A stretch of 64,000 nucleotides of DNA from an uncultured Actinomycetota bacterium (lineage in GTDB: Bacteria; Actinomycetota; Actinomycetes; Propionibacteriales; Nocardioidaceae), in the NCBI GenBank assembly GCA_963818365.1, contig CAWFRT010000005.1:4920-68919 (forward strand), written 5' to 3'. Shown here one piece after another: positions 25,977 to 47,588 of the stretch. Under the pieces are notes generated by a model that had not been told where the DNA came from, did no database searches, and saw only the letters and a program-made list of their open reading frames with translations. Positions within the stretch are counted from its first letter, which is position 1, and the number at the start of each line of letters is the position of its first letter. A program made the translations under genes and the position numbers.

Positions 25977-25992
25977 CTCTCCTATAGTAGAT
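25977..25992. promoter_or_regulatory. Candidate operator, copy 1 (cbtB/osmC-like divergence)
   Basis: CTCTCCTATAGTAGAT, 11/16 to GTTTACTATAGTAAAC. Confidence 0.45.
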
Positions 25993-26016
25993 TCGTCCAG
26001 AGCGGAGGAGGGGCTT

Positions 26017-26421
26017 GTGTCCGAACGAGTTGTCAGTGCGACGTGGTCGCCGGGACCGCTGAACACCACCGTGGAATTCGACACGCGGCAGACGATGCTT
26101 GTTGACGAGCCAGTCTCTGTGGGTGGGACGGGAATGGGCCCGCAGCCAACGGATCTCTTCATCGCATCGGTGGCGTCGTGCTTCACGTTGGCCTTGGTGT
26201 ACGCCGCGGGGAAGGCAGGCTTGTCGCTGACCTCAGTGGAGGTCGTGGTGACCGGCACCTATGCCGGACCACGTTTCTCCGAGATTGCCATCCATGCCGA
26301 GCTGGGCGGCGTACCCACTAGCGAGCGGGACGCCTTGGTCGCCTCCGCCGAGCGCTATTGCTATGTGACCAACACCCTCCGTCGCCCCCCAACGGTCACC
26401 ACCACCTCCACCTCCCGCTGA
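26017..26421 (+). CDS. OsmC-like family protein
   Basis: VDEPVSVGGTGMGPQPTDLFIASVASCF, ERYCYVTNTL. Confidence 0.85.
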   Translation: MSERVVSATWSPGPLNTTVEFDTRQTMLVDEPVSVGGTGMGPQPTDLFIASVASCFTLALVYAAGKAGLSLTSVEVVVTGTYAGPRFSEIAIHAELGGVPTSERDALVASAERYCYVTNTLRRPPTVTTTSTSR

Positions 26422-26513
26422 GGAGTCACGCAGATCCGGCGAGGCGTCACGTAAACCCGGCGAGGAGTCACGCAGATCCGGCGAGGCGTCACGTAAACCC
26501 GGCGAGCCGTCAC
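26420..26513 (+). repeat. 21-bp periodic array (ABAB plus half unit)
   Basis: GAGGAGTCACGCAGATCCGGC alternating with GAGGCGTCACGTAAACCCGGC. Confidence 0.9.
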
Positions 26514-26727
26514 CGTCGGATCGGCCGGCATGCCTGAACTGCTCAATGTCTGCTGATGTCGGGCCGCCAGACTTCCTTTAGCGCGAGCCAATCAACTGAC
26601 ATGGGCCATCCGCTGGTAGTCCGGATCGGGGTTTGTTGCAGGGAGGCCGGCTCGGCTGCAACAAGTCTGCAACGGCGCCGAGTTGGATGAATTCATCTCG
26701 GCTCCCCATCCCCCATGGAGGCGCACC

Positions 26728-27179
26728 ATGAGCAAAGTCGTTGTTGATACCGCAATTAGTGACGCCTCGTTGGGTTTACGTGACTCCTCGCCGGGTCTGC
26801 GTGAGCCTCGGCGGGTTTGCGTGACGCCTCGCCGGATCTGCGTGACGCCTCGCCGGGTGAGGCGTTGGCGAGCGTGCACTACTTGGCGGAGCGGCCATGC
26901 CGCTGTCGGTTCGCGCGGGATACGCAGGTGCACCACGATCAGTTGCTGCGCATCGCCAGCGATGGCGACGCCTTCTTCGAGTTGATGGAGTTGGCGGTCA
27001 CCTGGGGCGAGTTGGACTACTCCGAAATGCCGGTGATTCCGCCCAATCGGTGGCTTGAGTTCGTCGACTCCCACATGTGGGCCGATGGCGAGAAGGCCGA
27101 ACGAATGCTCGCCCTTGCCACCGATGTCGCGCTGGGTTCGGCACGCGCAACGGCTCGCCTGGAGCGGTCCGGCAGCTGA
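26728..27179 (+). CDS. Hypothetical protein with the repeat array in its 5' region; probably frameshifted, or starting near 26928
   Basis: GGAGG RBS and ATG at 26728; protein-like C-terminus (VHYLAERPCRC...LAVTWGELDYS) is in the -1 frame. Confidence 0.5.
26759..26856 (-). repeat. 21-bp periodic array, inverted relative to 26420-26513
   Basis: Five GTGAC(T/G)CCTC-type cores at 21-bp spacing; one unit (GTGAGCCTC) is 1 bp short. Confidence 0.88.
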
Positions 27180-27195
27180 CGTCGTACGCCGAAAC

Positions 27196-28179
27196 TCAAA
27201 CTAAGCCGGTGACCGTCTCCCGGTTGAGATCCAGCACCTCAACGCAATGACCCGCCGAAGCAAGGCCGATCAATCCCGAATCATCAACAACGCCGATCAC
27301 CTCGGCAGTGAGGTCACGCTGGTGGAACGCCTCGCGACAAGCGTCAACCTGTTCAACCGGGGTCGTCAGCAAGAACGCGTAGTTGGGGAAACAGGTCAGC
27401 CAGCGCGTCAACTCGACCCCATCCGGCACCGGCAAGGCGTCGAGGTCGACCCGGCAGCCATAGCGCCCGTGCTCCAAGAGCATCGCCAGGGAGCCCACGA
27501 GGCCGGCCATGCTGACGTCTTTGGCCGCCACCGCGGACCCCGACTCGGCGACCTCGGCCAACAATCGGATATCACCCGCGGCCTGCTCGGCGCGCTGGCG
27601 GAACCCCGCAAAGAACGGAAAGTCCGGCCGCATTTCGCCGACCAGCGAGCACGCCAAGATGACCGCGTGACCGGGCCGAACGTGAGTCATCGACAAGACC
27701 GCCTCCGCCCGGCCGAGCCCAAAGGCAGACAACGCAGGTGGACCGTCGGAGCGAGTCAGGTGCCCGCCGAGCAGCGGCACGTCATACAACTCGCAGCCGT
27801 AGCGAATTCCCCGCAAGATCTCACGGGCAGTCGTCTCGTTAGCCACGATGGTGTTCACGATGCCGGTCGGCCGCGCGCCCATCGCGGCCAGGTCGTTGAC
27901 GTTGGTCAGCACGGCCGCGATGCCGGCCCCGAACGGGTCGTGGGCGACAAAAGACGGCAACAGGGCCTCCCCGCAGGCCACCACAAACGAGTCATCAAAA
28001 GCAATTGCGGCACCGTCATCGCCGGGTCCGGTCAGCCAGTCGGATTTGTCGAAAACCTCCGAGACCAGGCCGATCGCCTGCTTGTCGCGGAGGCCGGCGT
28101 ACGCCGTCACGGTGGCAACTAGTTCGGTCAGTTGTGCGGCGCTGAGCCCGGGCCTCGAGGTGGTTCGGTCGCGTTGCAT
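27196..28179 (-). CDS. AIR synthase/selenophosphate synthetase-like protein (Sll0787/MSMEG_0567/NitF type); start uncertain
   Basis: GDDGAAI, TNVNDLAAMG, GGHL, KDVSMAG. Confidence 0.85.
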   Translation of the reverse strand: MQRDRTTSRPGLSAAQLTELVATVTAYAGLRDKQAIGLVSEVFDKSDWLTGPGDDGAAIAFDDSFVVACGEALLPSFVAHDPFGAGIAAVLTNVNDLAAMGARPTGIVNTIVANETTAREILRGIRYGCELYDVPLLGGHLTRSDGPPALSAFGLGRAEAVLSMTHVRPGHAVILACSLVGEMRPDFPFFAGFRQRAEQAAGDIRLLAEVAESGSAVAAKDVSMAGLVGSLAMLLEHGRYGCRVDLDALPVPDGVELTRWLTCFPNYAFLLTTPVEQVDACREAFHQRDLTAEVIGVVDDSGLIGLASAGHCVEVLDLNRETVTGLV

Positions 28180-28188
28180 ATAGGAAAC
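28173..28188. promoter_or_regulatory. Candidate operator, copy 2 (AIR synthase-like/comA divergence)
   Basis: GTTGCATATAGGAAAC, 12/16 to consensus. Confidence 0.5.
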
Positions 28189-28209
28189 GATAGATTTAGG
28201 ATCCGACAC

Positions 28210-28998
28210 ATGACAAGGCCAGGCTTCCTGTCACTCCCTGAGCGCGCTGAGAAGCCGCGTACGTCGGGTCTGACGCACGTCCTTGACAAGGGGCTCTCCG
28301 TCTCTGCCACCAGCGAATTGCTCCGGTCAGCGGGCAACTTTATTGACGTCTGGAAGTGGGGCTGGGGCACGGCTTACCTCGACCCCGACGTCCCTGTGAA
28401 ACTCAAGATGCTCGAAGGGGCGGGCATCAGCGCCTGCCTCGGCGGCACCATGCTGGAGATCTCGTGGCTGCAAGGCAAACACAAAGAGTGCCTGGACTGG
28501 GCGGCCGAGCTGGGTTTCCCGATGATCGAGGTGTCACGCGGAGTTGCGCCGATGACACTGGTGGAGAAGCGCGAACTGATTGAGTACGCCGTCTCGCACT
28601 TCACGGTGTTCAGCGAGGTCGGCAGCAAGGATCCGGCTTTCGACGTGGACCCGCAGGCATGGCGTGCGGAAGTCGTGTCTGACCTGGCAGCCGGCGCCTC
28701 GATGGTGGTCGCCGAGGGCCGCGAGAGTGGCACGGTGGGGCTGTATGACCCCGCGGGTGCGATTCGGCCGGACGTGGTGGAGGCAATCGCCGCGGTCGCG
28801 GGTCCGGATCGGATCTTCTTCGAGGCTCCGAAGAAGGACCAGCAGGCATGGTTCATTCGACACTTTGGGCCGAGCGTCAACCTGGCCAACATCGCCGCTG
28901 GCGAAGTGATGGGGCTGGAAGCCCTGCGCCTCGGCTTGCGTGCCGACACGGTCGCCCTAACCGGGGAAGGCGGGGCGCCAGGAGTTGGGGTGACATGA
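28210..28998 (+). CDS. comA: Phosphosulfolactate synthase (ComA family)
   Basis: GLTHVLDKG, DVWKWGWGT, LGGTMLE, IEVSRG, SEVGSKD, EGRESG, FEAP, LEALRLGLRADT. Confidence 0.93.
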   Translation: MTRPGFLSLPERAEKPRTSGLTHVLDKGLSVSATSELLRSAGNFIDVWKWGWGTAYLDPDVPVKLKMLEGAGISACLGGTMLEISWLQGKHKECLDWAAELGFPMIEVSRGVAPMTLVEKRELIEYAVSHFTVFSEVGSKDPAFDVDPQAWRAEVVSDLAAGASMVVAEGRESGTVGLYDPAGAIRPDVVEAIAAVAGPDRIFFEAPKKDQQAWFIRHFGPSVNLANIAAGEVMGLEALRLGLRADTVALTGEGGAPGVGVT

Positions 28999-29990
28999 GT
29001 GTGAACATCTATCCCGACAAATACCGCGGGGTTTCAGTGACCACTGTGGGCGGGGCCCTCGATCTTGAGTCCTTGCGGGCGTACTTCGTGGGAAAGCAGG
29101 CCTACTTCAAGACGAGGTACGCCGTCGTCAGCGGCACGGAAGGCGGTGTGCCTGCCACCGCCATCGTCCGCATTCACACCGCGGCGACCCCTTCAACTGG
29201 CGCCGTTCGGGGCGGACTATCTGGGGAGGGGGAGGGAGAAGGGGAGCTGTTTCTCCCGATCCTCGACGTCACCATGCTGGCTACCGCCGACGAAACGGTG
29301 GTCGTGGACGACCCCGAGATTGACACCGGTGTGCCCTCGGAGTTGGCCAGAGCCGCCCGTGAGCGAGCGCCGGGCTCTCGCGCGGTCGTCGTACACGGGC
29401 GCTATGAACACATCAGTTTCATCATCGACGCTCAACCCCTTCAAGTGCTCGTGCGCGAGGTGATTCCACCCGAACCCGCGAAACTCGTCGATCAGGCGGC
29501 CCGGGTCTTGGCCGTGCGCGAGGACTTGCCACCGATAGAGCTGATCCCCGATGTGGTGGATCTCCGCGAGGTGGCCGCGGCCCATCCAGCAGCGCACTAC
29601 CTCCTGCCTTGTCGAGGGTCGGGTTTCGTTCCTCAACAGTCCGAGCAGGGTGCCGCAGGCAACATCAAGATTGAATTCTTGGATGAACACCCAGCAGAAG
29701 GCGACTGGCTGATGCTGGGCTGCACGCGCTCGCAGCAGATCCACGGCGCGTTCTATGACCGCGATGCCCCCCAAGTGAGTTTCTGCCCCCTTGAACGGCC
29801 AGCCTCCCCCCTGTTGACGCTCACCAAATGTTGCCTCCAAGACGACGACATCGTGCGGGGAGACCACTCCGTGTCGGTGCCCTGGGGATCGTCGCTCGAG
29901 CGGGTGAGCGAGGCGCTCGAGGCGTTGGTGGCGCTGGCCAAAGATCAAGCCAGCACCGACCAACGGGTTCGCGCAGCGGAGGCGCTCTAG
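28995..29990 (+). CDS. Hypothetical Cys-containing protein translationally coupled to comA
   Basis: ATGA overlap; LLPCRGSG, LGCTRSQQIH, FCP, TKCCL. Confidence 0.75.
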   Translation: MSVNIYPDKYRGVSVTTVGGALDLESLRAYFVGKQAYFKTRYAVVSGTEGGVPATAIVRIHTAATPSTGAVRGGLSGEGEGEGELFLPILDVTMLATADETVVVDDPEIDTGVPSELARAARERAPGSRAVVVHGRYEHISFIIDAQPLQVLVREVIPPEPAKLVDQAARVLAVREDLPPIELIPDVVDLREVAAAHPAAHYLLPCRGSGFVPQQSEQGAAGNIKIEFLDEHPAEGDWLMLGCTRSQQIHGAFYDRDAPQVSFCPLERPASPLLTLTKCCLQDDDIVRGDHSVSVPWGSSLERVSEALEALVALAKDQASTDQRVRAAEAL

Positions 29991-31321
29991 TGGCGACCCG
30001 GATCAGCGACTCGGAGATGTATGCCCACCTCTGGACCGCCCCACAGTTGGACGGGTTGTTCGATGAGCGCGGTCGCCTGACTGTGTGGCTCACCATCTTG
30101 CGGGCGCTGGCCAAGGCGCAGGGCGAACTTGGGATCATCCCGACGCTGGCCGCCGGCGACATCGCCAAACTGACCGCCGCAGACCTCGACCTTGCGCTCG
30201 TCGCCGAGCACACCCGGCGTACGTCGCACTCGACGCTAGGTCTGATCCACGGGCTGCAAGCTGCGCTCCCAGAGGACGTGGCGCAGTATGCCTACTACGG
30301 CGCGACTGTCCAAGACGTCTCAGACACCTGGTTTGGCCTGGTGATGAGGGAGGTCGGTAGGCAGGCCAAGCTTGGGCTCGAGGAACTGCAACGGGGGCTG
30401 GTGTCGCTGAGCCAACAGCACCGCGACACGGTGATGCTGGGCCGCACCCATGGGCAGCCGGGCTCACCCATCACCTTCGGTTTCAAAGTGGCTTCGTGGG
30501 CTGATGAAGTGGGCCGCCATCTCGACCGGCTGGCTGAGGGACGCCCGCGCTGGGAGGTCGGCCAACTCGCTGGCGCGGTCGGTGTACTCGGCTTCTTTGG
30601 CGCACAAGGAACCGAGTTGCGGGCGCGGTTTTGTGCCGAGTTGGCACTCAACGATCCGGGCATTTCCTGGACGTCAAGCCGCGATCGGGTGGCTGAGTTT
30701 GGCGGCGTGCTAGCGATGATCTGCGCCACCTTGGCCCGAATGGGCAATGAGGTCTATGAACTCCAGCGCCCCGAGATCGGCGAATTGTCCGAGCCCCCCA
30801 TCGAGGGCGGCGTCGGCAGCATCACCATGCCGCATAAGCGCAATCCGGAGCGCAGTGAGCATCTGGCGACCCTGTCGAGGCTGGCTCGGGCGCAAGCCGG
30901 CGTCTTGCTGGAAGGCATGGAACATCAGCACGAGCGGGACGGCCGAGCCTGGAAGGCGGAGTGGATCGCGCTGCCGGAATTGTGTGAGTTAACGGTTGTC
31001 GCCGTGGGTCTGGCACAGCAACTGTTCCTTGACCTTGGCGTCCACCCCGATCGAATGGCCGCGAATCTCGCCGCCTCTGGGGTTGGGCCGCGGTCTGAGC
31101 AGTTGCTGGCGGCGCTGTCTGCGCGGATCGGGAAGCATCGCGCCCAAGCCTTGTTGCAGGAAGCCCTGGCCCAGGGTGCCGTCGAGGCCGACCTCGAGGA
31201 ACTGCTGATGAAGCACGGGGTAGCCGGCGAAGAGGTAGGCCAGTTGATGGCGACCTATCAGACCGGCGTCGCCGGGCAGATGGTCGACACCGTCCGCAGC
31301 AAGGGGCGCCGCAGTGATTGA
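29990..31321 (+). CDS. Adenylosuccinate-lyase-like protein (XcbD-like), non-canonical signature
   Basis: GATVQD, MLGRTHGQ, GSITMPHKRNP, HERD. Confidence 0.85.
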   Translation: MATRISDSEMYAHLWTAPQLDGLFDERGRLTVWLTILRALAKAQGELGIIPTLAAGDIAKLTAADLDLALVAEHTRRTSHSTLGLIHGLQAALPEDVAQYAYYGATVQDVSDTWFGLVMREVGRQAKLGLEELQRGLVSLSQQHRDTVMLGRTHGQPGSPITFGFKVASWADEVGRHLDRLAEGRPRWEVGQLAGAVGVLGFFGAQGTELRARFCAELALNDPGISWTSSRDRVAEFGGVLAMICATLARMGNEVYELQRPEIGELSEPPIEGGVGSITMPHKRNPERSEHLATLSRLARAQAGVLLEGMEHQHERDGRAWKAEWIALPELCELTVVAVGLAQQLFLDLGVHPDRMAANLAASGVGPRSEQLLAALSARIGKHRAQALLQEALAQGAVEADLEELLMKHGVAGEEVGQLMATYQTGVAGQMVDTVRSKGRRSD

Positions 31322-32339
31322 CGCGACCGACAAGGTGGCCAGCGCGAGATTGGCGCGGTTCGAGTTGCTCGCCGGGCCGACACCGCTCCAACGGTTGACC
31401 GCGATCGAGGCGTTGTGTGGGACCGGTCCACTCCTCGTCAAGCGCGACGATCTCACCGGGTTTGGAGTCGCGGGCAACAAGGCTAGGACGCTGGAATATC
31501 TCATCGGTGATGCCCTGGCTGGTGGCGCCGACGTGGTCGTCACCGGTGGTCGACCCGGCTCCAACTTCTGCTCGGCGACCGCGGCCGCCTGTGCCAAAGC
31601 TGGGCTTGAAGCCCACCTGGTGATGGCGCTGTCGCCCGGCGCCGTGCCGAGTTCGAACGTGAACTTGTCGGTCGCTTTCGGCGCGCAGATTGCCCCGGTT
31701 TCACCGACTTGTGACCTAGACGAAGCCATCGCGTCGTACGCCGACAGGCTGAGGTCGGCGGGCCGAAAGGTGTACGCCGTGCCGAGAGGCGGGGCCACGC
31801 CCATCGGTGCCTTGGGTTATGCCGACGCAGCCCACGAGTTGGCCGAGCAACTGTTCGGTGAGCCGGATCAGCCGATGCAGGTCGTGGTCGCAGTGGGGAC
31901 CGGCGGGACGGTCGCTGGGCTGCTGACTGGCCGCGGAGAATTGGGCGCGTCATGGGCGCTGGCCGGGGTTTGCGTGAGTTCGCCGGCGGCTGAAATGGCC
32001 GGGCGGATCACCCGAATAGCGGCGGGCTGCGCGGCGCTACGCGGCGCCCGTCCAGGGGTTGGTCTGACCCTGACCGATGCGCCTGGGGAGCACGGCGTAC
32101 TCACCAACGCGCAGCGTGATCTCGCCGACCTGGCGCTGCGCCACGAGGGGTTGTTGCTCGACAGCACCTACACGGCTAAGTCGTTTGAGCGCGCGGTCGA
32201 ACTGGCTCAGCGGACCACCCGGCCGACGGTTTTCTGGCACACGGGCGGCCTGCTGGGAGCGTTGGCACGCATCTCGACAGGCTCGACCAACCCCGAGGGA
32301 TCCAACCTCGGCGACTCGACCAACCTGGAGGACCGATGA
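31314..32339 (+). CDS. PLP enzyme of the D-cysteine desulfhydrase/ACC deaminase family (XcbE-like)
   Basis: TPLQ, KRDDLTG, GNKARTLEY, SN, GTGGT, LDSTYTAK, FWHTGG. Confidence 0.9.
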   Translation: MIDATDKVASARLARFELLAGPTPLQRLTAIEALCGTGPLLVKRDDLTGFGVAGNKARTLEYLIGDALAGGADVVVTGGRPGSNFCSATAAACAKAGLEAHLVMALSPGAVPSSNVNLSVAFGAQIAPVSPTCDLDEAIASYADRLRSAGRKVYAVPRGGATPIGALGYADAAHELAEQLFGEPDQPMQVVVAVGTGGTVAGLLTGRGELGASWALAGVCVSSPAAEMAGRITRIAAGCAALRGARPGVGLTLTDAPGEHGVLTNAQRDLADLALRHEGLLLDSTYTAKSFERAVELAQRTTRPTVFWHTGGLLGALARISTGSTNPEGSNLGDSTNLEDR

Positions 32340-33856
32340 CTAAGCGCGTGCGGGTGGCGGGGTCGGTGACCTCCAAGGCGGCACCGGAGTTGATCGCGTC
32401 AGGTTTTCAGATGGAGAACGACGACGCGCCCTACCTCCACGATGGCCTTAACCTGGCCGACATCGCGCACGTTTTGGACCTGTCACGCCGAGGGCTTTTG
32501 CCGGCGGACGCCGAACGGTCGTTGCTTGAGATCCTGCTGGAGGTCTGCGAGATCGACGCGGAGGACTTCCCTTACGATCCCCACCTGGGGGAGCCTTACA
32601 ACTCACGAGAGCACTACTTCGTGGAGGCGCTCGGGGATGCTGCTGGTTGGCTCCATGCGGGTCGCCCACGTCGGGAGGCGGCCAGGATTGCCCTGCGCCT
32701 GCGGCTTCGACGGCAACTCGTTGACCTAGTCCTCGACGTCGTCGCCTTTGGCACTCAGGTGTGTGACCTAGCGACCGAACATGCCGACACCCTGATGGCC
32801 GATCAGACGTATCTTCAACAGGCTCAGCCCTCCACCTTTGGGCACTATTTGCTCACTTTTGCCCACCCGGCCCTGCGCGACGCCGAGCGGCTCCTGGACG
32901 AGCTGAAACAGATCAATGCCAGTCCTGGCGGGGCTGGGTGCGTCAATGGCACACGTCTCCAAGACGATCGCGGCTACCTCGCAAACCTGCTCGGCTTTGA
33001 CTCCGTGATCACCCACACTCGCGATGCGATGTGGCGGGTCGATGACCTGATCGCCTTGCTTGCGACCACCACCTCGGTGGTTTCTAATCTCAGCAAGTTG
33101 GCCGAAGACTTGGAGATCTTTTCCAGCGCCGAGTTTGACTTCGTCGATCTCGACGACTCGTTCAGCCGCTCAAGTGTGCTGATGCCCAACAAGCGAAACC
33201 CCTATGCGTTGTCGATCGTTCGCGGCGCCTCCGGCGTGTTGATCGGCCGGCTCTCCGGCTTTCTGGCGGTCACGAAGAGTCCGTCGGCGCGTTCGGACAA
33301 CTTCATTTATGCGTACGGCGAGGTGCCCCGCGCGCTGGACTTAGCCGAGCGGGTGACAGCGCTGATGGCCGGTGTGGTGCGGACCCTGGTGGTGCATCCA
33401 GACCGAATGTTGGCGGAATTGGACCGCGGCTATGCCCAATCGACAGATCTTGCAGAGTTCTTCACGGTGAAACGCGGCGTGGACTATCGCACGGCCTATT
33501 ACGTCGTCGGAGACGCCGTACGACAAGCGAGTCGGGAGGGGATTCCCGGACGTTTGATCGGCGCCGAGATCATCAACCGGGCGGCGGCGGCTCGCACGGG
33601 AACACCGTGGGATGTCACCGACGAAGAACTGGCCGAGGTGTTGAAGCCGGAGTCGATCGTTGCCTCGCGAACCGCCGAGGGTGGCGCGGCCAAAGCTGTC
33701 GTGCTGGCCGGGGTCGAAGCCACCCGTGCTCGACTCAGCCTGATCGCGGAGCAGGCCGACCAGCGGTTGCGTGACTTCGACGCTGTCGAAGTTTCATTGC
33801 TGGCGCAGGCCCGCAGCGTTGTTGCTACCCCGTCAGTGAAATCAGAGGAGAAGTGA
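32336..33856 (+). CDS. Argininosuccinate-lyase-like protein (XcbC-like), non-canonical catalytic motifs
   Basis: TYLQQAQP (Tyr where THxQ has His), SSVLMPNKRNP, TDLAE. Confidence 0.85.
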   Translation: MTKRVRVAGSVTSKAAPELIASGFQMENDDAPYLHDGLNLADIAHVLDLSRRGLLPADAERSLLEILLEVCEIDAEDFPYDPHLGEPYNSREHYFVEALGDAAGWLHAGRPRREAARIALRLRLRRQLVDLVLDVVAFGTQVCDLATEHADTLMADQTYLQQAQPSTFGHYLLTFAHPALRDAERLLDELKQINASPGGAGCVNGTRLQDDRGYLANLLGFDSVITHTRDAMWRVDDLIALLATTTSVVSNLSKLAEDLEIFSSAEFDFVDLDDSFSRSSVLMPNKRNPYALSIVRGASGVLIGRLSGFLAVTKSPSARSDNFIYAYGEVPRALDLAERVTALMAGVVRTLVVHPDRMLAELDRGYAQSTDLAEFFTVKRGVDYRTAYYVVGDAVRQASREGIPGRLIGAEIINRAAAARTGTPWDVTDEELAEVLKPESIVASRTAEGGAAKAVVLAGVEATRARLSLIAEQADQRLRDFDAVEVSLLAQARSVVATPSVKSEEK

Positions 33857-35277: not shown

Positions 35278-35283
35278 AACAAG

Positions 35284-35322
35284 GTGGAGGAAATAGCGCA
35301 CCTGGTGCGCCAATTCCTCCAC
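35284..35322. repeat. ~40-bp palindrome, family P
   Basis: GTGGAGGAAATAGCGCAC-CTG-GTGCGCCAATTCCTCCAC. Confidence 0.85.
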
Positions 35323-35343
35323 TTAGCGAGCCCGAACTAGCCT

Positions 35344-36033: not shown

Positions 36034-36035
36034 CC

Positions 36036-37882: not shown

Positions 37883-37914
37883 TTGACGTCCCACTCGCGT
37901 TTACTATGATAGAC
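37883..37914 (+). promoter_or_regulatory. Promoter (TTGACG-16-TATGAT) overlapped by candidate operator copy 3
   Basis: GTTTACTATGATAGAC at 37899-37914, 13/16 to consensus. Confidence 0.6.
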
Positions 37915-37984
37915 GACAACCTCACATAATGGACACGCCATCGCTGACGTGTTCGCCGGTCTCGTCAGGAGTGTCCATCAAGTT

Positions 37985-39319: not shown

Positions 39320-39326
39320 TCCGCCG

Positions 39327-39584
39327 GTGAGTTTCTCAACGTGGTTGCGATCCAACTCGCAGCATTATCTAGTGGCGGCCTCGCAAGAGGAGATCGCTAA
39401 GCGTCACGGCGTACCCGGCCCAAAGCGGTACGGCGGCTTCTCGGAGTTCTTTTGGCTCAGCATCTTTGCTCCTCTCTATCGAATCCTCCCCTGGAAGTTG
39501 CGCCATGCAGTCATGCGCGGAATGCCTGGGAGTCACCGTCGGCATTGGGACTACCCCACCGACACCACAGGACCGGCGATATGA
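39327..39584 (+). CDS. Small hypothetical protein in the operon
   Basis: Protein-like composition (FWLSIFAPLYRILPW, MPGSHRRHW); 7 bp after the oxidoreductase stop. Confidence 0.7.
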   Translation: MSFSTWLRSNSQHYLVAASQEEIAKRHGVPGPKRYGGFSEFFWLSIFAPLYRILPWKLRHAVMRGMPGSHRRHWDYPTDTTGPAI

Positions 39585-39739
39585 CGCGCCGAGCCTGCCC
39601 CAGAACGGCGCTAAGCCGAACCCGCGCAGCCACGCGCATGCAGTTGCACCAGCTCGGCCCTAAGAAGAACGAACCCAAGAAGAATCAGCCCGAGAAGAAT
39701 CAGCCCGAGAAAATCAGCGCAGTGAGAGGAATCTGAAAC

Positions 39740-40225
39740 ATGCCAAAGACAGTCAACTGGGGACCCCCAGCGGTCGGTGAGTCCCTTTTCAACGACGAGA
39801 AGTTGTTTGAGGACATCAAGGCCAACGAAGGCGAAAAGGCCTTCATCTTCATTCACACGGTGCCTTACGAGGGCTCGGTCGCCCTGGTGAACCTGCTGAC
39901 CTCGACGCGACTTCGTCGCAAGGGTTTCGAAGTCAACATCATCCTTTATGGCCCTGGCGTGCTCCTTGCTTCGGGCACCCGCGGCTTCCCGACCATTGGC
40001 GCCGAGGCGTTCCCAGGTCACATGGCGATCAACAAGCAACTGGGTGTGCTGATGGACGAAGGCGCAACGATCTATGCCTGCCGTTTCGCCATGGGTGCTC
40101 TCTACGGCATGGGTGAGGATCAATTGATCCCCGGGGTGAAGGCATTCCACCCGCTCGACGTACTCGACTCGGCGCTCACCGCCTGGCGTGCCGGCGCCTT
40201 CCAGATGAACACCTGGACGGTCTGA
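39740..40225 (+). CDS. MSMEG_0572/Sll0783 (NitB, DsrE-like) family protein
   Basis: FIHTVPYEGSVALVNLLT, LYGPGV, AFPGH, IYACRFAMGALYG. Confidence 0.88.
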   Translation: MPKTVNWGPPAVGESLFNDEKLFEDIKANEGEKAFIFIHTVPYEGSVALVNLLTSTRLRRKGFEVNIILYGPGVLLASGTRGFPTIGAEAFPGHMAINKQLGVLMDEGATIYACRFAMGALYGMGEDQLIPGVKAFHPLDVLDSALTAWRAGAFQMNTWTV

Positions 40226-40243
40226 TCTAGATACCCTCCCGCG

Positions 40244-40283
40244 GACGTCATACGAAGTGGTGCGAACCATTTCGTATGACGTC
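40244..40283. repeat. 40-bp palindrome (18-bp arms, 4-nt loop)
   Basis: GACGTCATACGAAGTGGT-GCGA-ACCATTTCGTATGACGTC, one mismatch. Confidence 0.8.
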
Positions 40284-40289
40284 TTGCGG

Positions 40290-40360
40290 GGTTTCGAGAC
40301 GGCGCTAACGCGCCTCCTCAACCACCGGACGGGACGGCGCTAACGCGCCTCCTCAACCAA
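40290..40360 (+). repeat. REP-like element, two units
   Basis: GGTTTCGAGAC-GGCGCTAACGCGCC-TCCTCAACCA, then a second hairpin and tail. Confidence 0.85.
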
Positions 40361-40414
40361 CATGCAGGACGGCGCGCAGGCGCCGGCTCAACCGCCAACC
40401 ACGAAGGAGGAGCC

Positions 40415-41083
40415 ATGGACGGCATTGCTGACATGGGAGGAAAACCCGGTTGGGGGGCGGCCAAGCCGCCGGCCGCCGACGAACCTGTCTTTGCCGAGGA
40501 GTGGGAGGGTCGAGCCTTCGCGTTGGCGCTGTTGTCGATGCGCACGGCGGGCACCAACCTCGACTCGTTCCGTCACGCGTTGGATCGCCAACCACGCGAG
40601 AAATACATCGACGACGGCTATTACGGACGGTGGCTGCACGCTGCCGAACTGATGCTCGTCGAGTCCTCGATCCTGGCCCCGGATGCGGTTGAGGCCCGCG
40701 CCCGCAATCTGCGCGGCGAAGGTATCCCCGAGCCCGGCATCCCCGAGCCCAACAAGCCCGACTATGCCCCAACCGCGGCGGGTTCACTGCGACCGATCGA
40801 CGACGTGCCCGTCTTTGCCATCGGAGACCGTGTACGCGCAAAGGACATTAGCCCCGCCAAGCACACCCGACTAGTCGGCTATGTGCGTGGCCGCGAGGGT
40901 GTGGTGTCGCGGATCGAACCGTCAGCGCTGTTGCCCGACACTCACGCCACTTTCGAGGGCGAAAACCCGCAAAACGTCTATTGCGTCAGTTTTGACTCCC
41001 ACGAATTGTGGGGCGCCGACGCGGAGTCATTCACCTTGAACATTGATCTTTGGGAAAGCTATTTGGAGGCTGCGTCATCATGA
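40415..41083 (+). CDS. nthB: Nitrile hydratase beta subunit
   Basis: [50 protein letters not shown]. Confidence 0.95.
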
Positions 41084-41661
41084 GCGAGGAACATCTGCCG
41101 ATCCAACTTCGAACCGAGGCGCTGGAGCAACTGCTTGTTGAGCGGGGACTGGTCGATCCGTCGATCATGGACCGCTTCATCAGCACCTACGCCAACGACG
41201 TTGGTCCGCTCAACGGCGCCAAGGTCGTCGCGAAGGCCTGGACCGATCCGGACTACAAAGCCCGCTTGCTTGAGGAGGGCACCGCCGCGATCGGCGAGCT
41301 CGGCTTCAAGGGGCCGCAGGGCGAGCACATGGTGGTCGTGGAGAACACTGACGACACCCACAACGTGGTCGTGTGCACGCTCTGCTCGTGTTATCCGTGG
41401 CCGGTGTTGGGATTGCCGCCGAGTTGGTACAAAGACCCGGCGTATCGCTCGCGGGTCGTCCGCGAGCCTCGCGCTGTGTTGTCCGAGATGGGCCTCAACG
41501 TGCCCGCTGAGAAGGACATCAAGGTCTGGGACTCCTCCTCTGAGGTGCGTTTCTTCGTGTTGCCACAGCGCCCGGCTGGGACCGAGTCCTTGTCGGAAGA
41601 GGAACTGGCGGCCCTAGTCACCCGGGACGCAATGGTCGGCGTTGCCGAGGTGTCCGTATGA
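41080..41661 (+). CDS. nthA: Nitrile hydratase alpha subunit, cobalt type
   Basis: [21 protein letters not shown]; CTLCSC is the Co-type motif (Fe-type has CSLCSC). Confidence 0.97.
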
Positions 41662-42047
41662 CGTCCGCCTCCGGCGTACTCGACATCGAAGGGGTGGCCG
41701 CTCCTCCGCGCTCTAATGGCGAGTTGGTCTTTGGCGCCCCCTGGGAGAGCCGAACCTTCGGGATGGCGATGGCGCTGTATGACGCCGGCGCCTTCGCGTG
41801 GGATGACTTTCGCGATGCGTTGATCGCGCGGATCTCGGCCTGGGAGGCGGACCCGCCCGAGGGCGAGTGCTACTCCTACTACCAATGCTGGCAGGGTGCC
41901 CTCGAAGATGTGCTCGCGGCCAAGGGTCTCGTCACCCCCGACACGTTGGCCACCCGCGGTGCCGAACTGGCGGCTCGTCCCGCAGGCTATGACCACGGTC
42001 ACGATCATGGCGACGGGGACCACGACCACGGAGACCACCACCACTAG
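41658..42047 (+). CDS. Nitrile hydratase accessory/activator protein with His-rich tail
   Basis: [23 protein letters not shown], tail [17 protein letters not shown]. Confidence 0.9.
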
Positions 42048-42054
42048 ACGAACA

Positions 42055-42104: not shown

Positions 42105-43067
42105 CTACCCCACCCGGCCGAGGGCGATAACGCAGCCCTGTCCGCACGGGTGGAGGGTTCCCTCCCAGCCACCGGCTTCCAGGAGTTGTCCGATGCGCTG
42201 CGCGGTGTGACAGCCGCGGTTGTGGACCTGACCCCAACCCAGCCGCACGGTTTGTCGCCCGTCGACTAGGGCATCCAGATCTCGGTCGAGGTCGCGGTCT
42301 CGTTGGTGCGACGAAGCATGGAAGAGGCGGCCATCGAGTTCAACGGTCAGCCCGAAAGGCTCGAAAGTGAGGTCGTCATAGAGCTTGCCAACGGTGCCAA
42401 CCCACGAGACCTGATGTAACGCCGGAGGCAATCCGTGAGGTCGTTGGACAAGGCGAACGAAGTCGTTTTCCAACACCGAGTGGGTCCCCATCGCAACGTC
42501 ATTGAGGATGCCGATCAGCCAGTCGCGTCGCCGCAACCGCGGACGTTGGTGTAGCGCGGCCAGCAACCGCTCGGGCGTCGTACGCCGTGAGCGGCAGGCG
42601 TCCGCAACCACCTCAAGGGCGTCCATCTCGAAGGGCTGCTCGGCGGCAACATCGAGAACCGCCTCTTCAATCCGCACCCGAGGAGGGCTGCCCTCTCGGA
42701 CGCGGTCGTCAAAGTCGCCCTGTCGGCAGATGACATAGCCGGTTCGCGATTTGACCCGTCTCCCTTGCGAGACCGTGATCGTGATCGGGTCGGCGTCACG
42801 TTCGGGGTGCCAGCCCGGACCGTTGGCGACCCGCAGGGCAGATGTCTTGCCGAGCGCGGCCGGGGCATAGAACAACGTGCCTGCCCACGCCCGTTGTATC
42901 CAGGTCGGCTGACCTGTGTGGTTGATGAAGACCCCGGGCATCAGCCGCACCAGTTGGCGCCTCCGGAGCATTCGATCGAGCGCAGGCTTGGTTACACCGA
43001 TCGCCACCAGCTGTCGGCGAGACACCACACCGTTTTGGTCTGCGAAGAGTTGTCCGAGGGCATTCAT
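42105..43067 (-). CDS. AbiEi-antitoxin-like N-terminal domain plus DUF559/Vsr-like nuclease-fold protein
   Basis: QNGVVSRRQL, LVRLMPGVF, HSVLE, VELDGRLFH, DRDLDRD, TVRLGW. Confidence 0.8.
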   Translation of the reverse strand: MNALGQLFADQNGVVSRRQLVAIGVTKPALDRMLRRRQLVRLMPGVFINHTGQPTWIQRAWAGTLFYAPAALGKTSALRVANGPGWHPERDADPITITVSQGRRVKSRTGYVICRQGDFDDRVREGSPPRVRIEEAVLDVAAEQPFEMDALEVVADACRSRRTTPERLLAALHQRPRLRRRDWLIGILNDVAMGTHSVLENDFVRLVQRPHGLPPALHQVSWVGTVGKLYDDLTFEPFGLTVELDGRLFHASSHQRDRDLDRDLDALVDGRQTVRLGWGQVHNRGCHTAQRIGQLLEAGGWEGTLHPCGQGCVIALGRVG

Positions 43068-43118
43068 CGGTCCAGTGTGTGCGAATCGGCCGACCCAAGG
43101 CGCACGAGCCCCGCTGCC

Positions 43119-43143
43119 TGTGGATGAACCCGCGTGTGGATAA
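43119..43143. promoter_or_regulatory. Two DnaA-box-like 9-mers upstream of the AbiEi/DUF559-like gene
   Basis: TGTGGATAA (43135-43143, reverse complement of TTATCCACA) and TGTGGATGA (43119-43127). Confidence 0.5.
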
Positions 43144-43148
43144 CTAAC

Positions 43149-43185
43149 TGGAGGAAATGGCGCATCTGGTGCGCTATTTCCTCCA
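43149..43185. repeat. Palindrome, family P
   Basis: TGGAGGAAATGGCGCA-TCTGG-TGCGCTATTTCCTCCA. Confidence 0.88.
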
Positions 43186-43369
43186 ACTTAGTCGCCGGAA
43201 AGTTGAGGCTCGCTGATTTAGCGCGTGAATGTGGTCATGGCGACCGTCCAGCTGCGCAACTATGACGCCGCGGCCCATGGCGCTCCGCGGCAGCGAGGTG
43301 CCGATTCGACCCATGCCACGCCTGGCGCGCACCCAGGCGTCGAGTGCGTCGTCGACGTCACGGGCTGAA

Positions 43370-43696
43370 ATGGATGGTTTGATCGCCACCGCAATGGGGC
43401 TCTTCAAGATTGCGGCCGTCGTCGCCGCGACTCTCGCCTCGTCGTGGGCTCTCTTTATGTTCGGCTACTCGAACCCCGAACTGGCTGCGCAGTGGCTGCC
43501 GCGCTTCGATGTTGTCACCAGACACCTTTGGGGGCTGGGCGTCTTGCTCGCCCTATTGGGGCTGAGCATCGGTGCATCGACGAGTCTCATTGCGCGACGG
43601 ATAGGCCAGTCAGCGTGGGCCTTGGTGCCGGGCCTCTGGGTGGTGGCTTGCTTCGCCGTCCTTCTGCTCGGTCCGCATTCCTCGTCGGGTTCCTGA
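43370..43696 (+). CDS. Small hypothetical membrane protein (about three TM helices)
   Basis: Hydrophobic ORF lying between two family-P palindromes. Confidence 0.55.
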   Translation: MDGLIATAMGLFKIAAVVAATLASSWALFMFGYSNPELAAQWLPRFDVVTRHLWGLGVLLALLGLSIGASTSLIARRIGQSAWALVPGLWVVACFAVLLLGPHSSSGS

Positions 43697-43754: not shown

Positions 43755-43774
43755 CTTAAGTGTCGACCGCCTCC

Positions 43775-44956
43775 TCAGCCGGCGGAAGGGTCGCCGTACA
43801 ACTCAAGGTGGCGGAGGGCGCTGCCGGTCCAGGAATACTTCTCGGCGACGGGTCGCCCGCCCTCGACCAGCCGCGCGCGCAACTCACCGTCGATCGCGAC
43901 TCGCTCCAACGCATCGGCCAGCGCCAGATGATCGGCCACAGCAGGCATCAACGCAGACACCCCGTCGACCAAATATTCGCCGAACACATCAATGTCAGAG
44001 GTCACCGCGGGCCGCCCAGCCGCCAACGCTTCCAGCACCGCGAGACCCCAGCCTTCGTTTGTCGACGGATAGGCGAGCGCGTCGCAGGCGTGATACCAAC
44101 CCACCAACTCTGACTCCGGCACAGTGCCGAGGATGATCACGTCTTTGTCCAACGCCAAACCCAACTCGTCGATCTCGCGCAGGCAATTGTCGCGATAGGC
44201 CGCATAGTCCTGAAACGAGTGACCACCCAACACAGCGACAGCTGGCGGCGAAGGCATCCGCGACTTCAACTCCGCGAGCGCCCGCACGAGATGGATCGCC
44301 CCTTTGCGTGGCTCGAGGCCGCCGACGGCAAGGAACAAGAAGCGATCAGGGGGGATGCCGGTGCGCGCCCGCAACTTTGCAACCAAGTCATCGTCAGCGG
44401 CCGCAAACCGCGGCAGATCCACTCCGTTCCACACCACTGATGCCTCAACCCCATAGTCCGCCAGCAACAATTGGCGCCAATGATCGCTGACCACGAAGAC
44501 CTGATCGGGTTCGTGGATCGCGGCGATCTGGCAATCGATGAGGGCCTGCGTGGTGAAGTCGTCGACGTGATGAACGGTGCGTACGACGCGCACGGGAGTG
44601 TCGCCGTGAGCGATCTGGGCCTCCCTCACCCGCACCGCCGCCCGCGCAGAAATGCAGTCCTGGGTGTGCAGGATGTCGAATCCTCCGACGGCCCGTTGCA
44701 ACCCGACCTCCAGGGCATCAATGCTGGCGAAGACCTTCTCTTCCAAGGTGCCTACATCGCCGGGAGCGGGGAACACCAGCGTCGGAGCAGCGACCTCCCG
44801 ATAGAAGCCCACCTCCGGATCGCCGAGCGTGATGATCGTGACATCCGCACCCGCGGCGTACATCGCCTCGCCCAACGCGAGAGTGTGCACCACCCCTCCG
44901 CGAGGTTTGGTGGAGTAGGTGATTAGCGCTATCCGCGGGCCAGATCTCTCGGGCAC
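43775..44956 (-). CDS. MSMEG_0565-family GT4 glycosyltransferase
   Basis: IALITYSTKPRGGVVHTLAL, LHTQDCIS, TVHHVDDFT, GGLEPRKG, EGWGLAVLEALA. Confidence 0.92.
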   Translation of the reverse strand: MPERSGPRIALITYSTKPRGGVVHTLALGEAMYAAGADVTIITLGDPEVGFYREVAAPTLVFPAPGDVGTLEEKVFASIDALEVGLQRAVGGFDILHTQDCISARAAVRVREAQIAHGDTPVRVVRTVHHVDDFTTQALIDCQIAAIHEPDQVFVVSDHWRQLLLADYGVEASVVWNGVDLPRFAAADDDLVAKLRARTGIPPDRFLFLAVGGLEPRKGAIHLVRALAELKSRMPSPPAVAVLGGHSFQDYAAYRDNCLREIDELGLALDKDVIILGTVPESELVGWYHACDALAYPSTNEGWGLAVLEALAAGRPAVTSDIDVFGEYLVDGVSALMPAVADHLALADALERVAIDGELRARLVEGGRPVAEKYSWTGSALRHLELYGDPSAG

Positions 44957-46512
44957 TACAGGACCTTCTTCACCAGAGCGGGGTCGCGGGTCGCAATAGC
45001 GCCCGCTGCCAACGCCGCCCGGGCGGCCGTCTCGGTGACGATGCAGCCAGCGGCTTCCAGGGTGGACCGTTGGGCGGCGAAACCCTGCGGATCCTGGTCG
45101 GTGCCGAGGACGTACGCCACGACTTGAGCGCCCCCGGCATCGTGAATCTCACGACAAGCCGGGGCAAGCTGTCCGGCGGGATCATCGTGGGACCCATAAC
45201 CGATCACCACGTCGAGCAGGATCGCTGCCAGGTCGGACTCTTGACCGGCCTCGCGTAGCAGCTCCAATCGAGCCTCCGGGTCGATCATCGGGTGTGGCCG
45301 ACCTTGGGTGTATTCCTCCTCGCCAAGATCCAAACAGATGTGCGAGCCTGCCGGGGCCGGGACATGGAGGGACTTGTCGAGCGGGGTGTTTGACCAGACC
45401 TTGCCAAGAATCGGCCCCAGGATGGTTAGTGCTTCGTAGCACAGTGTGCCGCCCGAATAGAGGCCCCGCACCAGCGTCTGCTCTTCGCGAAGTCTTCCCA
45501 GGGAGTGGGTGATGGAGCTTTCGAGTGAACCCACCACATCAGGCACTTCGTCGCCGAGCAACCGCAGCGTTTCGAGCACGCCTGCCTCAAGCGTCGCGGC
45601 CACGCGAGCCGTGGACGGTAGCTCAAAGGAGGCTGTCGTGCCGACGTACGCCGCCACAAAAGGCATGTCGCCAGCCTCGGCGATCACTGCCCTGGCTACG
45701 TCGTCGGCGGGGGGCTTCGACACAAAGAGGATGGCTTCGACGTCATCGCGGGCTCGCAGCGACGCCACCGCCAGCCGGGCCATCCGGCCGTCGACTTCGG
45801 CGTTGAGGTCGCGCCCACCCAGCCCGATCACGGCGATCACACCCTCGCCAAATCGGTCGAGCAAACTCATCGCTTCCTGGGCGCCCGTGCCGGCGGCCGC
45901 GATCACGCCGATCCGGCCAGGCTTCACCACGTTGGCAAAGCCAAGCCCGGTCTCGCCCAACATCGCGGTGCCCGCGCCCGGACCCATCACCAGCCGCCCA
46001 AGCGCACGGGCCCGGTCCTTGAGTTCGATTTCAGCATCGACCGGGATGTTGTCGCTAAAGAGCAACACGTCGAGCCCAGCCGACAGCGCCTTGTGGGCCT
46101 CAAGCGGGGCATAGTCGCCGGGCACAGAGATGACGGCGACATTGCTGCCGGGTTGGGCTTCGATGGCGGCCCGCAGAGAGCGAGGGCTGGCCACCGGGCC
46201 GGACGCAGCCGATTCACGCGTGCTGAAAACGGCGGTTTCGGCAGCGTCCAGGGCCGCCGCGACAACTTCATCTGAAGCAGAGCGCACCGCAAAGAAGAGA
46301 TCGTTTCCGCCGGCCGGCTCGATCGACGCCGTGTCGAAACCTTCGGCTCGCAATTCCTCTAGATTGGCGGACGTCGCCATCGCGACCGCCGTCCATTCGA
46401 CTCCGGCAACGGCATACATTGCCCGCGTTCCCGAGAGTTGCACCACCGAGTCGACGTAGGTGTCGCGGAACACCTTGAGGGCCCGATTGCTTGCTGCGCT
46501 TTCCCGGCTCAT
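44956..46512 (-). CDS. fdrA: FdrA-family acyl-CoA synthetase-like protein (AllF-like)
   Basis: YVDSVVQL, ISVPGDYA, FSDN, MGPGAGT, GLYSGGTLCYE, DLGEEEYTQGRPHPMIDP. Confidence 0.9.
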   Translation of the reverse strand: MSRESAASNRALKVFRDTYVDSVVQLSGTRAMYAVAGVEWTAVAMATSANLEELRAEGFDTASIEPAGGNDLFFAVRSASDEVVAAALDAAETAVFSTRESAASGPVASPRSLRAAIEAQPGSNVAVISVPGDYAPLEAHKALSAGLDVLLFSDNIPVDAEIELKDRARALGRLVMGPGAGTAMLGETGLGFANVVKPGRIGVIAAAGTGAQEAMSLLDRFGEGVIAVIGLGGRDLNAEVDGRMARLAVASLRARDDVEAILFVSKPPADDVARAVIAEAGDMPFVAAYVGTTASFELPSTARVAATLEAGVLETLRLLGDEVPDVVGSLESSITHSLGRLREEQTLVRGLYSGGTLCYEALTILGPILGKVWSNTPLDKSLHVPAPAGSHICLDLGEEEYTQGRPHPMIDPEARLELLREAGQESDLAAILLDVVIGYGSHDDPAGQLAPACREIHDAGGAQVVAYVLGTDQDPQGFAAQRSTLEAAGCIVTETAARAALAAGAIATRDPALVKKVL

Positions 46513-47480
46513 CGGCTGCTCGCAAGAGAGTCGGCCAGCACGATGGTGGTCCCGACGCCGCGCGAATCGTCAGCAGTGGAGTCCAAGGCGTCCGCCACCA
46601 GTTCGGGCGAAGTGATGATCGCTCGCCTGCCGCCGTTGCGGACAAAGCTGATCGCCGCGCGCACTTTGGGGCCCATCGAGCCCTCCGGGAACTGGCCTTC
46701 GTCGAGGTAGCGCTCGGCTTCCACACTGGTGATGACGTCCAGATATCTGACTGTCGGCTTGCCGAAGTCGATCGCCACCTTCTCCACACCCGTGACCAAC
46801 ACCAAGGTATCAGCGCCGATGGAGGAGGCAACCTGCTCGGCGGCGTAGTCCTTGTCAACGACGGCGTCCACGCCGACGTAGCCATCCACGCGAGAAACCA
46901 CCGGGATCCCGCCGCCGCCAGCGGCAATCACGACCGCGCCAGAGTTCACCAGGGTGCGGATCGCGGCGCTTTCGACGATCGAGATCGGTCTCGGGGAGGG
47001 TACGACGCGACGCCAGCCGCGACCCGAATCCTCAACCATCGTCCAACCACGATCGGTTGTGAGCGTCTTCACCTGATCCTCGCTGAAGAACGGTCCAATT
47101 GGCTTAGTTGGCCGGGTGAAAGCAGGATCATCGGCGGCAACCACGGTGTGGGTGACCACTGCCACCGCCTCGACTTGGCCGTGCGAGGCGCGGCGCAAAG
47201 AGAGGGCAATCATGCTGCCAAGGTAGGCCTCGGTCATGGCGCCAAGGGTGAAGAGCGGCTGAGCCGGGACCAAGTCAGCACCCTCTTCCTGCTGAATCGC
47301 CAACGAGCCGACCTGTGGTCCGTTTCCATGCACGACCGCAACATTCCAGCCTGACTGGATGAGGTGGTTGATGCCGTGGGCCATGGCGAGGGAGTTGATC
47401 TCCTGCTCGTCGTACGTCCCGCGTTGACCCTCCTTGGTGAAGGCGTTGCCGCCCAGGGCGACCACCACAGAACGACGCAT
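46509..47480 (-). CDS. Carbamate kinase
   Basis: VVALGGNA, HGNGPQVG, PTKPIGPF, RRVVPSP, GGGGIP, DAVVDKD, GSMGPK. Confidence 0.95.
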   Translation of the reverse strand: MRRSVVVALGGNAFTKEGQRGTYDEQEINSLAMAHGINHLIQSGWNVAVVHGNGPQVGSLAIQQEEGADLVPAQPLFTLGAMTEAYLGSMIALSLRRASHGQVEAVAVVTHTVVAADDPAFTRPTKPIGPFFSEDQVKTLTTDRGWTMVEDSGRGWRRVVPSPRPISIVESAAIRTLVNSGAVVIAAGGGGIPVVSRVDGYVGVDAVVDKDYAAEQVASSIGADTLVLVTGVEKVAIDFGKPTVRYLDVITSVEAERYLDEGQFPEGSMGPKVRAAISFVRNGGRRAIITSPELVADALDSTADDSRGVGTTIVLADSLASSR

Positions 47481-47552
47481 TTGCGGGCCTTTCAGTTCAC
47501 TTGGCCGACGGGATTCGGCTGGCTAAACGCCGCATCTCAGGGATCGAAAGTG

Positions 47553-47588
47553 TTGGACAATACGACGTTGACGTTTACTATAGTAAAC
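47553..47588 (+). promoter_or_regulatory. Promoter (TTGGAC-17-TACTAT) with perfect 16-bp operator palindrome, copy 4; probably a leaderless mRNA
   Basis: GTTTACTATAGTAAAC at 47573-47588, immediately before ATG 47589. Confidence 0.7.

Follow-up and report, generated by a model that had tools for sequence, protein, structure and literature searches.

A conserved 16-bp element on the divergent promoters of a Nocardioidaceae metabolic gene cluster, a putative operator of the local XRE-cupin regulator

The window analysed here is a stretch of 64,000 nucleotides (contig C5:4920-68919) from the 3.4-Mb, 62% G+C genome of an uncultured Nocardioidaceae bacterium, designated G000. It contains a hybrid metabolic gene cluster in which an AT-rich 16-bp element lies on the promoters of four divergent gene pairs. 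This element is real and non-random, it overlaps promoters, it is conserved in related clusters, and it co-occurs with the gene of a transcription factor of the XRE-cupin type (37242-37868). We estimate the probability that the element is the operator of this regulator at roughly 0.6. The identity of the binding protein, the sign of regulation, the existence of a ligand and the leaderless starts are all features that we infer. The copies present in the window, to which no strand is assigned unless given, are as follows.

47573-47588: perfect 16-bp palindrome GTTTACTATAGTAAAC, between the carbamate kinase gene (minus strand) and the small open reading frame (ORF)/radical SAM operon (plus strand), directly before the ATG at 47589
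37899-37914: GTTTACTATGATAGAC, 13/16 matches, between the XRE-cupin gene (minus strand) and the CoADR-like flavoprotein operon (plus strand)
28173-28188: GTTGCATATAGGAAAC, 12/16 matches, between the AIR-synthase-like gene (minus strand) and comA (plus strand)
25977-25992: CTCTCCTATAGTAGAT, 11/16 matches, the weakest-looking copy, between cbtB (minus strand, start 25936) and osmC (plus strand, start about 26017)
28194-28209, minus strand: auxiliary second 16-mer GTGTCGGATCCTAAAT, 5 nt from the 28173 copy and abutting the comA ATG at 28210; 9.7 bits

The sequence-only reading had located the four main copies, with 16, 13, 12 and 11 matching bases out of 16, and all of them were recovered at the same positions; the consensus of the element in the window is GTYTACTATAGTARAC. 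The four regions that bear a site are true divergent junctions, namely cbtB/osmC, AIR-synthase-like/comA, XRE-cupin/flavoprotein and carbamate kinase/small ORF-radical SAM. That reading had counted four divergent promoters in the locus, each with the motif; a fifth divergent junction, between an AbiEi-like gene and orf155 (43068-43228), carries no copy of it.

The element overlaps -10 boxes or abuts putatively leaderless start codons. Two -10 overlaps had been proposed, and both were confirmed. At the 47573 site, TACTAT (47576-47581) lies 17 nt after TTGGAC (47553-47558) and only 7 nt before the ATG at 47589, so this start is probably leaderless. At the 37899 site, the plus-strand -10 box TATGAT (37905-37910) lies 16 nt after the -35 box TTGACG (37883-37888), and the same 16 bp, located 31 nt upstream of the XRE-cupin start codon, also cover a candidate minus-strand -10 box, TATCAT, for the regulator gene. 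The likely start codon of the AIR-synthase-like gene (CAT 28177-28179) falls inside the 28173 copy, and this copy together with the auxiliary one fills the gap between the start codons of comA and of the AIR-synthase-like gene. The 25977 copy lies about 25 nt 5' of the osmC start codon, ahead of the ribosome binding site (RBS) GGAGGAGG. No larger hairpins were found around the sites. Two further sequences were considered as second sites and dropped at about 0 bits each: ACCTCACATAATGGAC at 37919-37934, which overlaps an RNA hairpin arm instead, and the minus-strand CGTCGGCCAAGTGAAC at 47495-47510, 14 nt before the carbamate kinase ATG.

The frequency of the element was compared with chance expectation at two scales. 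None of 100 shuffles of the window sequence gave any match with three or fewer mismatches. Across the 3.4-Mb genome, no more than five sites show four or fewer mismatches, and three of these belong to this 20-kb locus. Sites with five mismatches number 63 genome-wide and include the 25977 copy (11/16), which is therefore weak on mismatch count alone. To derive a motif matrix, we then applied a Gibbs sampler of our own to 48 promoter regions taken from 13 orthologous clusters, with G000 and its near-twin G062 excluded. When about 6.8 million positions of the G000 genome (both strands) were scanned with this matrix, the 47573 site ranked 1 and 2 (on its two strands), the 25977 site 4, the 37899 site 6 and the 28173 site 14. 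By contrast with this matrix, none of 40 column-shuffled versions placed any of its top 14 hits in the four regions (0/40). Within the window, ten matrix hits exceed 8.5 bits, and eight of them lie in the four intergenic regions. Judged by the genome-wide ranks and the shuffled-matrix controls, the element is strongly enriched relative to the AT-rich promoter background of this genome; a lack of such enrichment, named in the sequence-only reading as an outcome that would refute it, was not observed. In each genome that carries the cluster, close matches are almost confined to it. The only other close match in G000 outside the locus, CTCGACTATAGGAGAC (C4:848060-848100), forms the centre of a longer inverted repeat (ggcagta...tactgcc) located 8 nt before an ATG; no XRE-cupin gene adjoins it, the nearest paralog being 22 kb away.

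Orthologous clusters were gathered mainly by a genome search with the radical SAM protein, while a locus search based on the regulator yielded two useful loci. The gene set was found in G062, G061, G030 and G004, and in ten further genomes that come from at least eight genera of the family, with the order of the operons shuffled. The shared genes encode the radical SAM, GNAT and AIR-synthase-like proteins, ComA, XcbA, two lyases, a pyridoxal phosphate (PLP) enzyme, AllG, OsmC, the flavoprotein, Orf85, a DsrE-like protein, a glycosyltransferase, FdrA, carbamate kinase and the XRE-cupin protein. Despite this shuffling, the element occupies the same junctions in about 14 related clusters of Nocardioidaceae and Actinomycetota. 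At the regulator/flavoprotein junction it occurs in G062, G061, G080, G242, G107, G165 and G072, as ATGCAATATAGTAAAC in five genera and as GTTAAGTATAGTAGAC in G061. At the comA/AIR-synthase-like junction, a related 16-mer, GTTTAGCATAGGCAAC or a variant of it, is present in at least ten orthologs, and in nine genomes the comA copy ends exactly at the GTG or ATG of comA. The element is also conserved at the carbamate kinase/small ORF junction and at the radical SAM promoter. The surroundings of the 47573 site form a conserved island common to G000 and G061, in which GTTTACTATAGTAAAC plus ATG of G000 corresponds to ATCTACTATAGTAGAC plus ATG of G061; the two differ by T>C in one arm and by the matching A>G in the other, so that the double substitution keeps the palindrome. 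Conservation in orthologs, which had been put forward as a check on the motif, was thus observed at the same junctions in several genera, but not for the 25977 copy. In the upstream region of the regulator gene, the operator is followed in six genomes (G080, G242, G107, G165, G072 and G030) by a further conserved block, AGTAAAC-gaa-AGTCAACCATGGTG, which includes the near-palindrome AACCATGGTG; the lineage of the window lacks this block.

The comparison also refined the anatomy of the element. The core of the element across the family is c-R-T-N5-ATAGTRAAC, that is, a strong ATAGTRAAC arm preceded by a weaker inverted left arm. Among unselected left arms only R1, T2 (31/34) and A/C5 stand out. 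When intergenic AGTRAAC sequences were considered, an inverted partner was enriched exactly at the palindromic offset (on average 3.4 of 7 matches versus about 1.9), with a second enrichment at 22-23 nt. Conservation extends beyond the -10 hexamer to the outer bases G1, T2, A15 and C16 and to the AGT..AAC arm. Many promoters carry two 16-mers, 20-21 bp apart centre to centre, as in the radical SAM promoter (GTTTGCTATAGGAAAC-aaatc-GTGTCGCCAAGTCAAC) or upstream of comA in G338 (CTGTCGGAAAGTGAAC-gaaat-GTTTAGCATAGGCAAC-GTG), and the latter layout of 16-mer, 5 nt and 16-mer recurs in G061 and in the window. Some second copies, for instance GTGTCGCGAAGTAAAC in the 5' untranslated region (5'UTR) of the radical SAM gene and others upstream of the comA copy, contain no TANNNT hexamer, yet they are conserved across genera. 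The register of the hexamer also varies: it spans positions 4-9 of the element at leaderless starts but positions 7-12 at promoters with a TTGACG -35 box, a shift of 3 nt. The description of the motif as a palindrome therefore needs to be qualified: it applies perfectly to the 47573 site, while most relatives have the strong ATAGTRAAC arm with a weak inverted one, often doubled.

The product of 37242-37868 has an N-terminal helix-turn-helix (HTH) domain of the XRE type (Pfam HTH_3, E=3.7e-9; HTH_31, E=3.1e-8), which is also the part covered by the PDB matches 1Y9Q and DdrOC. Its Pfam Cupin_2 score of 24.0 bits falls just under the cut-off of 27.2. In the AlphaFold2 (AF2) model, residues 100-208 are all-beta with a predicted local distance difference test score (pLDDT) of 75-88, and the best Foldseek matches are 1Y9Q (an XRE-cupin regulator, 186 columns) and 6B8W (an XRE regulator's cupin domain), ahead of numerous other cupins; the TM-score for the whole model is low, about 0.35. 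An architecture combining XRE and cupin domains is thus supported by profile and model. The XRE-cupin gene is the sole transcription factor gene conserved in the orthologous clusters, although in G079 it is found on another contig, and genomes that have only distant radical SAM clusters contain no ortholog of it. The overall identity among the 14 orthologs is 37-50%, and in all of them the HTH segment LSLQQ..AEVSAA[SA]IHKIER..MVPTITTLLK is nearly invariant. This constancy appears to parallel that of the DNA arm. In Pseudomonas, all XRE-cupin factors studied are local inhibitors, and the palindromes to which they bind are located in the intergenic region adjoining the regulator gene itself (PMC7901475). 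The proposal of a single regulon under the XRE-cupin protein, already made from the sequence of the locus, is supported by this precedent, by the status of the protein as the only conserved regulator and by its near-invariant HTH. In G001, a near-identical palindrome, GACTACTATAGGAGAC, fills the 18-nt gap between the gene of a paralogous XRE-cupin protein and a divergent GNAT/acetyltransferase gene (L019 1497-1519, G001:C10:124863-124878). With only these 18 nt between them, taken up by the palindrome, both genes would be leaderless and would share one palindromic -10 box and operator.

Taken together, these features suggest the following mode of action. The XRE-cupin protein would bind as a dimer, or as two cooperating dimers at 16-mers spaced 20-21 bp apart, covering the -10 box and the transcription start and blocking RNA polymerase at each promoter pair, until a small molecule held by the cupin domain releases the repressor. 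The AT-rich centre TACTATAGTA would at the same time provide the -10 hexamer, and in the palindromic copies it would do so for both strands. Acting at the four divergent junctions, one protein could in this way control as many as eight transcription units: the cbtB-lar genes and osmC; the AIR-synthase-like gene and the comA...allH operon; the regulator's own gene and the flavoprotein-DsrE-nitrile hydratase operon; and the carbamate kinase-fdrA-glycosyltransferase genes and the small ORF-radical SAM-GNAT genes.

Several observations weigh against this interpretation. The centre of the element coincides with a -10 hexamer and some high scorers outside the cluster, such as those upstream of the principal sigma factor gene and of kdpD, resemble ordinary promoters, so part of the conservation reflects promoter constraint. 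Strong conservation is limited to one arm in most relatives, where the element is no clean palindrome; dimer symmetry is therefore weak outside the G000/G061 lineage. Sites within one junction class are related by descent and are not independent observations, hence the site counts overstate independence. For the 25977 site no counterpart was found in orthologs, the osmC/larB junction of G061 being without a site, while in other genera osmC follows allG within an operon; the argument for this copy is thus its genome-wide rank. The regulator gene lies behind the glycosyltransferase gene in five genomes; of these, only G030 shows a clear site upstream of it, and no convincing one was seen in G094, G338, G205 or G284. 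Finally, the structure model, built from a 3-sequence alignment, reached a pLDDT of 60, which is adequate for the cupin part but gives low confidence in the HTH.

Alternatively, the element could be a real operator bound by another regulator, encoded elsewhere in the genome or corresponding to the SARP-type activator at 49853-53059, which we consider unlikely. The homologous Nit1C/gpr cluster of Mycobacterium smegmatis is driven by the global regulator GlnR (PMC3662644, PMC6039565), and the GT..AC arms and the tandem layout of about 21 bp superficially recall GlnR boxes. In G000, canonical GlnR boxes (GTTACGGGCAGGAAAC, GAAACAAGATCGAAAC) are located upstream of amtB, where the matrix gives at most 4.1 bits (up to 7.1 in a second region tested), whereas neither GTnAC-n6-GnAAC nor Gn2AC-n6-GnAAC, with their AC-n9-AC spacing, matches anywhere in the four cluster regions. 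Moreover, the GlnR consensus does not include A10, G11 and T12, the most conserved bases of the element, the half-sites of the two differ in length by one base, and the best matrix hits outside the cluster adjoin unrelated genes rather than nitrogen genes. GlnR was consequently rejected as the binder. The pair GAAACAAGATCGAAAC + GTTACGGGCAGGAAAC lies at about 36,400 of contig C3, upstream of the first of two ammonium transporter genes, which points to a normal GlnR-type nitrogen regulon, separate from the control of the cluster. As for the SARP gene, it adjoins the locus in both G000 and G061, but its homologs are restricted to these two genomes, while at least 12 clusters keep the motif with no SARP in the fetched regions. 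SARPs bind direct heptad repeats near the -35 box, not a palindrome on the -10 box, and SARP control of the element is unlikely. The AbiEi-like gene is likewise absent from most clusters that keep the motif. Neither protein being conserved with the motif, both were rejected as binders.

The element might also have no dedicated regulator and represent a shared core-promoter signature, a strong TATAGT/TACTAT -10 box with a preferred discriminator, that becomes palindromic where divergent, partly leaderless promoters are packed back to back. In favour of this view, a TANNNT hexamer coincides with every strong copy, conservation is higher in the gene-proximal arm, the last base of the 16-mer is always at -1 at leaderless genes, the arms are split in several genomes into two outward-facing -10-like units about 36 bp apart, and matrix hits outside the cluster are mostly intergenic. 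We nevertheless regard this possibility as rather improbable. The conserved copies without TANNNT in the radical SAM 5'UTR and upstream of the comA copy, the conservation of G1, T2, A15, C16 and AGT..AAC beyond the hexamer, the 3-nt shift of the register relative to the -35 box and the start codon between promoter classes, the symmetric compensatory change between G000 and G061, and the near restriction of close matches to the cluster argue for a bound protein, and this evidence favours a protein operator over a mere promoter signature. It is more doubtful still that only the perfect and the 13/16 copies are functional and that the weaker ones at 28173 and 25977 are chance AT-rich promoter sequence. 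The 63 five-mismatch sites of the genome and the lack of an orthologous counterpart at 25977 fit such a view, but a matrix blind to G000 places both copies among its 14 best-scoring positions out of 6.8 million. In addition, the 28173 copy has homologous sites in at least ten orthologs and a tandem partner, and the 25977 copy matches the sm125/carbamate kinase (CK) site of G061, GTCTACTATAGTAGAT, at 14 of 16 bases. An operator bound by the XRE-cupin protein is thus the explanation that we prefer.

The genes of the locus are listed below; for each target, regulation is predicted from the position of the sites.

21607-25936, minus strand: cbtB-cbtA-orf-larB-larE-larC (Pfam CbtB, CbtA, AIRC, Ni_insertion), divergent from the 25977 site; putative target
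about 26017-26421, plus strand: osmC-like gene (Pfam OsmC); putative target
26592-28179, minus strand: sll0787-type AIR-synthase-like gene (27196-28179; NCBIfam TIGR04049, below cut-off) and a downstream uncharacterised ORF; putative target
28210-36991, plus strand: comA-xcbA-lyase-PLP enzyme-ASL-like-allG-azlC-azlD-allH; putative target operon
37242-37868, minus strand: XRE-cupin transcription factor of 208 aa; proposed binder and autoregulator
37985-42047, plus strand: CoADR-like flavoprotein-orf85-DsrE-like-nitrile hydratase beta-alpha-activator-like; putative target operon
42105-43696, divergent pair: AbiEi-like gene and orf155, between two convergent operons
43775-47480, minus strand: carbamate kinase-like, FdrA-like and MSMEG_0565-type glycosyltransferase genes; putative target operon
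47589-49581, plus strand: small ORF (125 aa)-MSMEG_0568 radical SAM-MSMEG_0567-type GNAT; putative target operon
49853-53059, minus strand: SARP-type activator gene, adjoining the locus

The hybrid cluster (21607-49581 of the window) combines comA/xcbA-E-like genes of the coenzyme M (CoM) type, genes of the Nit1C/gpr type, the CoADR-like-orf85-DsrE-like trio and the AllG/FdrA/carbamate kinase genes, and it is kept in at least 15 genomes of the family. The nitrile hydratase genes are found only in the G000/G062/G061 lineage, Lar genes were observed in just two genomes, G000 and G061, and cbtAB in G000 alone. The segment with the AbiEi-like gene and orf155, which breaks up the cluster, is missing from all orthologous clusters examined and has its own divergent junction without the motif, which is consistent with a later insertion. 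The small ORF preceding the radical SAM gene (47589-47966) encodes 125 aa here and matches no Pfam or NCBIfam family. Its counterpart in most relatives is much longer, with roughly 500-800 nt of coding sequence and its own promoter, and a second promoter directly precedes the radical SAM gene. In the 5'UTR of the flavoprotein gene, ACATAATGGACACGCC (37924-37939) and GGAGTGTCCATCAAGT (37968-37983) form an inverted repeat with 81% complementarity, the first arm of which is partly kept in G061 and G062. Because the second arm spans the RBS and reaches the start codon, this repeat may act as a translational hairpin.

The shared element on divergent promoters is the best available sequence argument for co-expression of the modules of the hybrid cluster as one pathway. 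Under a broader proposal, which we advance tentatively and hold to be doubtful, a single XRE-cupin repressor that senses a ligand would join five modules to one pathway across soil Actinomycetota, with the palindrome serving as shared bidirectional -10 box and operator. These modules would be CoM-type sulfonate synthesis (comA/xcbA-E-like), Nit1C/gpr, cobalt nitrile hydratase, AllFGH/carbamate kinase, and cobalt uptake with Lar; to our knowledge, they are not known to work together. If this were true, back-to-back and partly leaderless promoters would use the same 16 bp as operator and promoter, and the ligand of the cupin domain would be a substrate or product of the pathway, giving an experimental handle on what Nit1C/gpr clusters make or degrade. 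A defined repressor-operator pair would open two routes to the function of these clusters, via the inducer bound by the cupin domain or via derepression of the whole cluster by deletion of one gene. The mechanism itself would be ordinary, that of a local repressor with operators on the promoters of its neighbours.

Among known systems, PuuR of Escherichia coli is an XRE-cupin repressor that has several operators within one catabolic cluster (puu) and is released by a small molecule. It also gives the best full-length NCBIfam alignment with the present regulator (residues 33-203). With 43.7 bits, far under the equivalog cut-off of 211 (NF007408), the regulator is not a PuuR ortholog, and both the motif and the pathway differ. 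Pseudomonas inhibitors such as PauR, PsdR, ErfA and PA0535 (Trouillon et al. 2021, PMC7901475) resemble it in having an XRE HTH and a cupin domain, an intergenic palindrome next to their own gene that is compatible with promoter occlusion, and metabolic neighbour genes, and in that regulator and targets move as one local unit. They differ in that the proteins are distant (no significant match beyond the HTH) and the motif is another one, the host here being actinobacterial. Most Pseudomonas members have one or two targets, whereas the regulon predicted here from sequence alone would cover four junctions and up to eight units. The tandem pairs of sites 20-21 bp apart and an operator centre that would coincide with the -10 box of leaderless promoters are further differences from the Pseudomonas set. 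The present regulator would add an actinobacterial subfamily and its motif to the XRE-cupin regulators, which have so far been characterised mainly in Pseudomonas. The gpr cluster of M. smegmatis (MSMEG_0565-0572, Nit1C-type) has homologous genes for the radical SAM protein MSMEG_0568, the GNAT protein, the glycosyltransferase MSMEG_0565 and the DsrE-like protein, and it is regulated as a unit, as is predicted for the present cluster. Its regulator GlnR is a global OmpR-type activator acting at Gn2AC-n6-GnAAC upstream of a single operon (PMC3662644), whereas the sites of the present cluster, which is without a GlnR box, lie on the -10 boxes of four divergent junctions.

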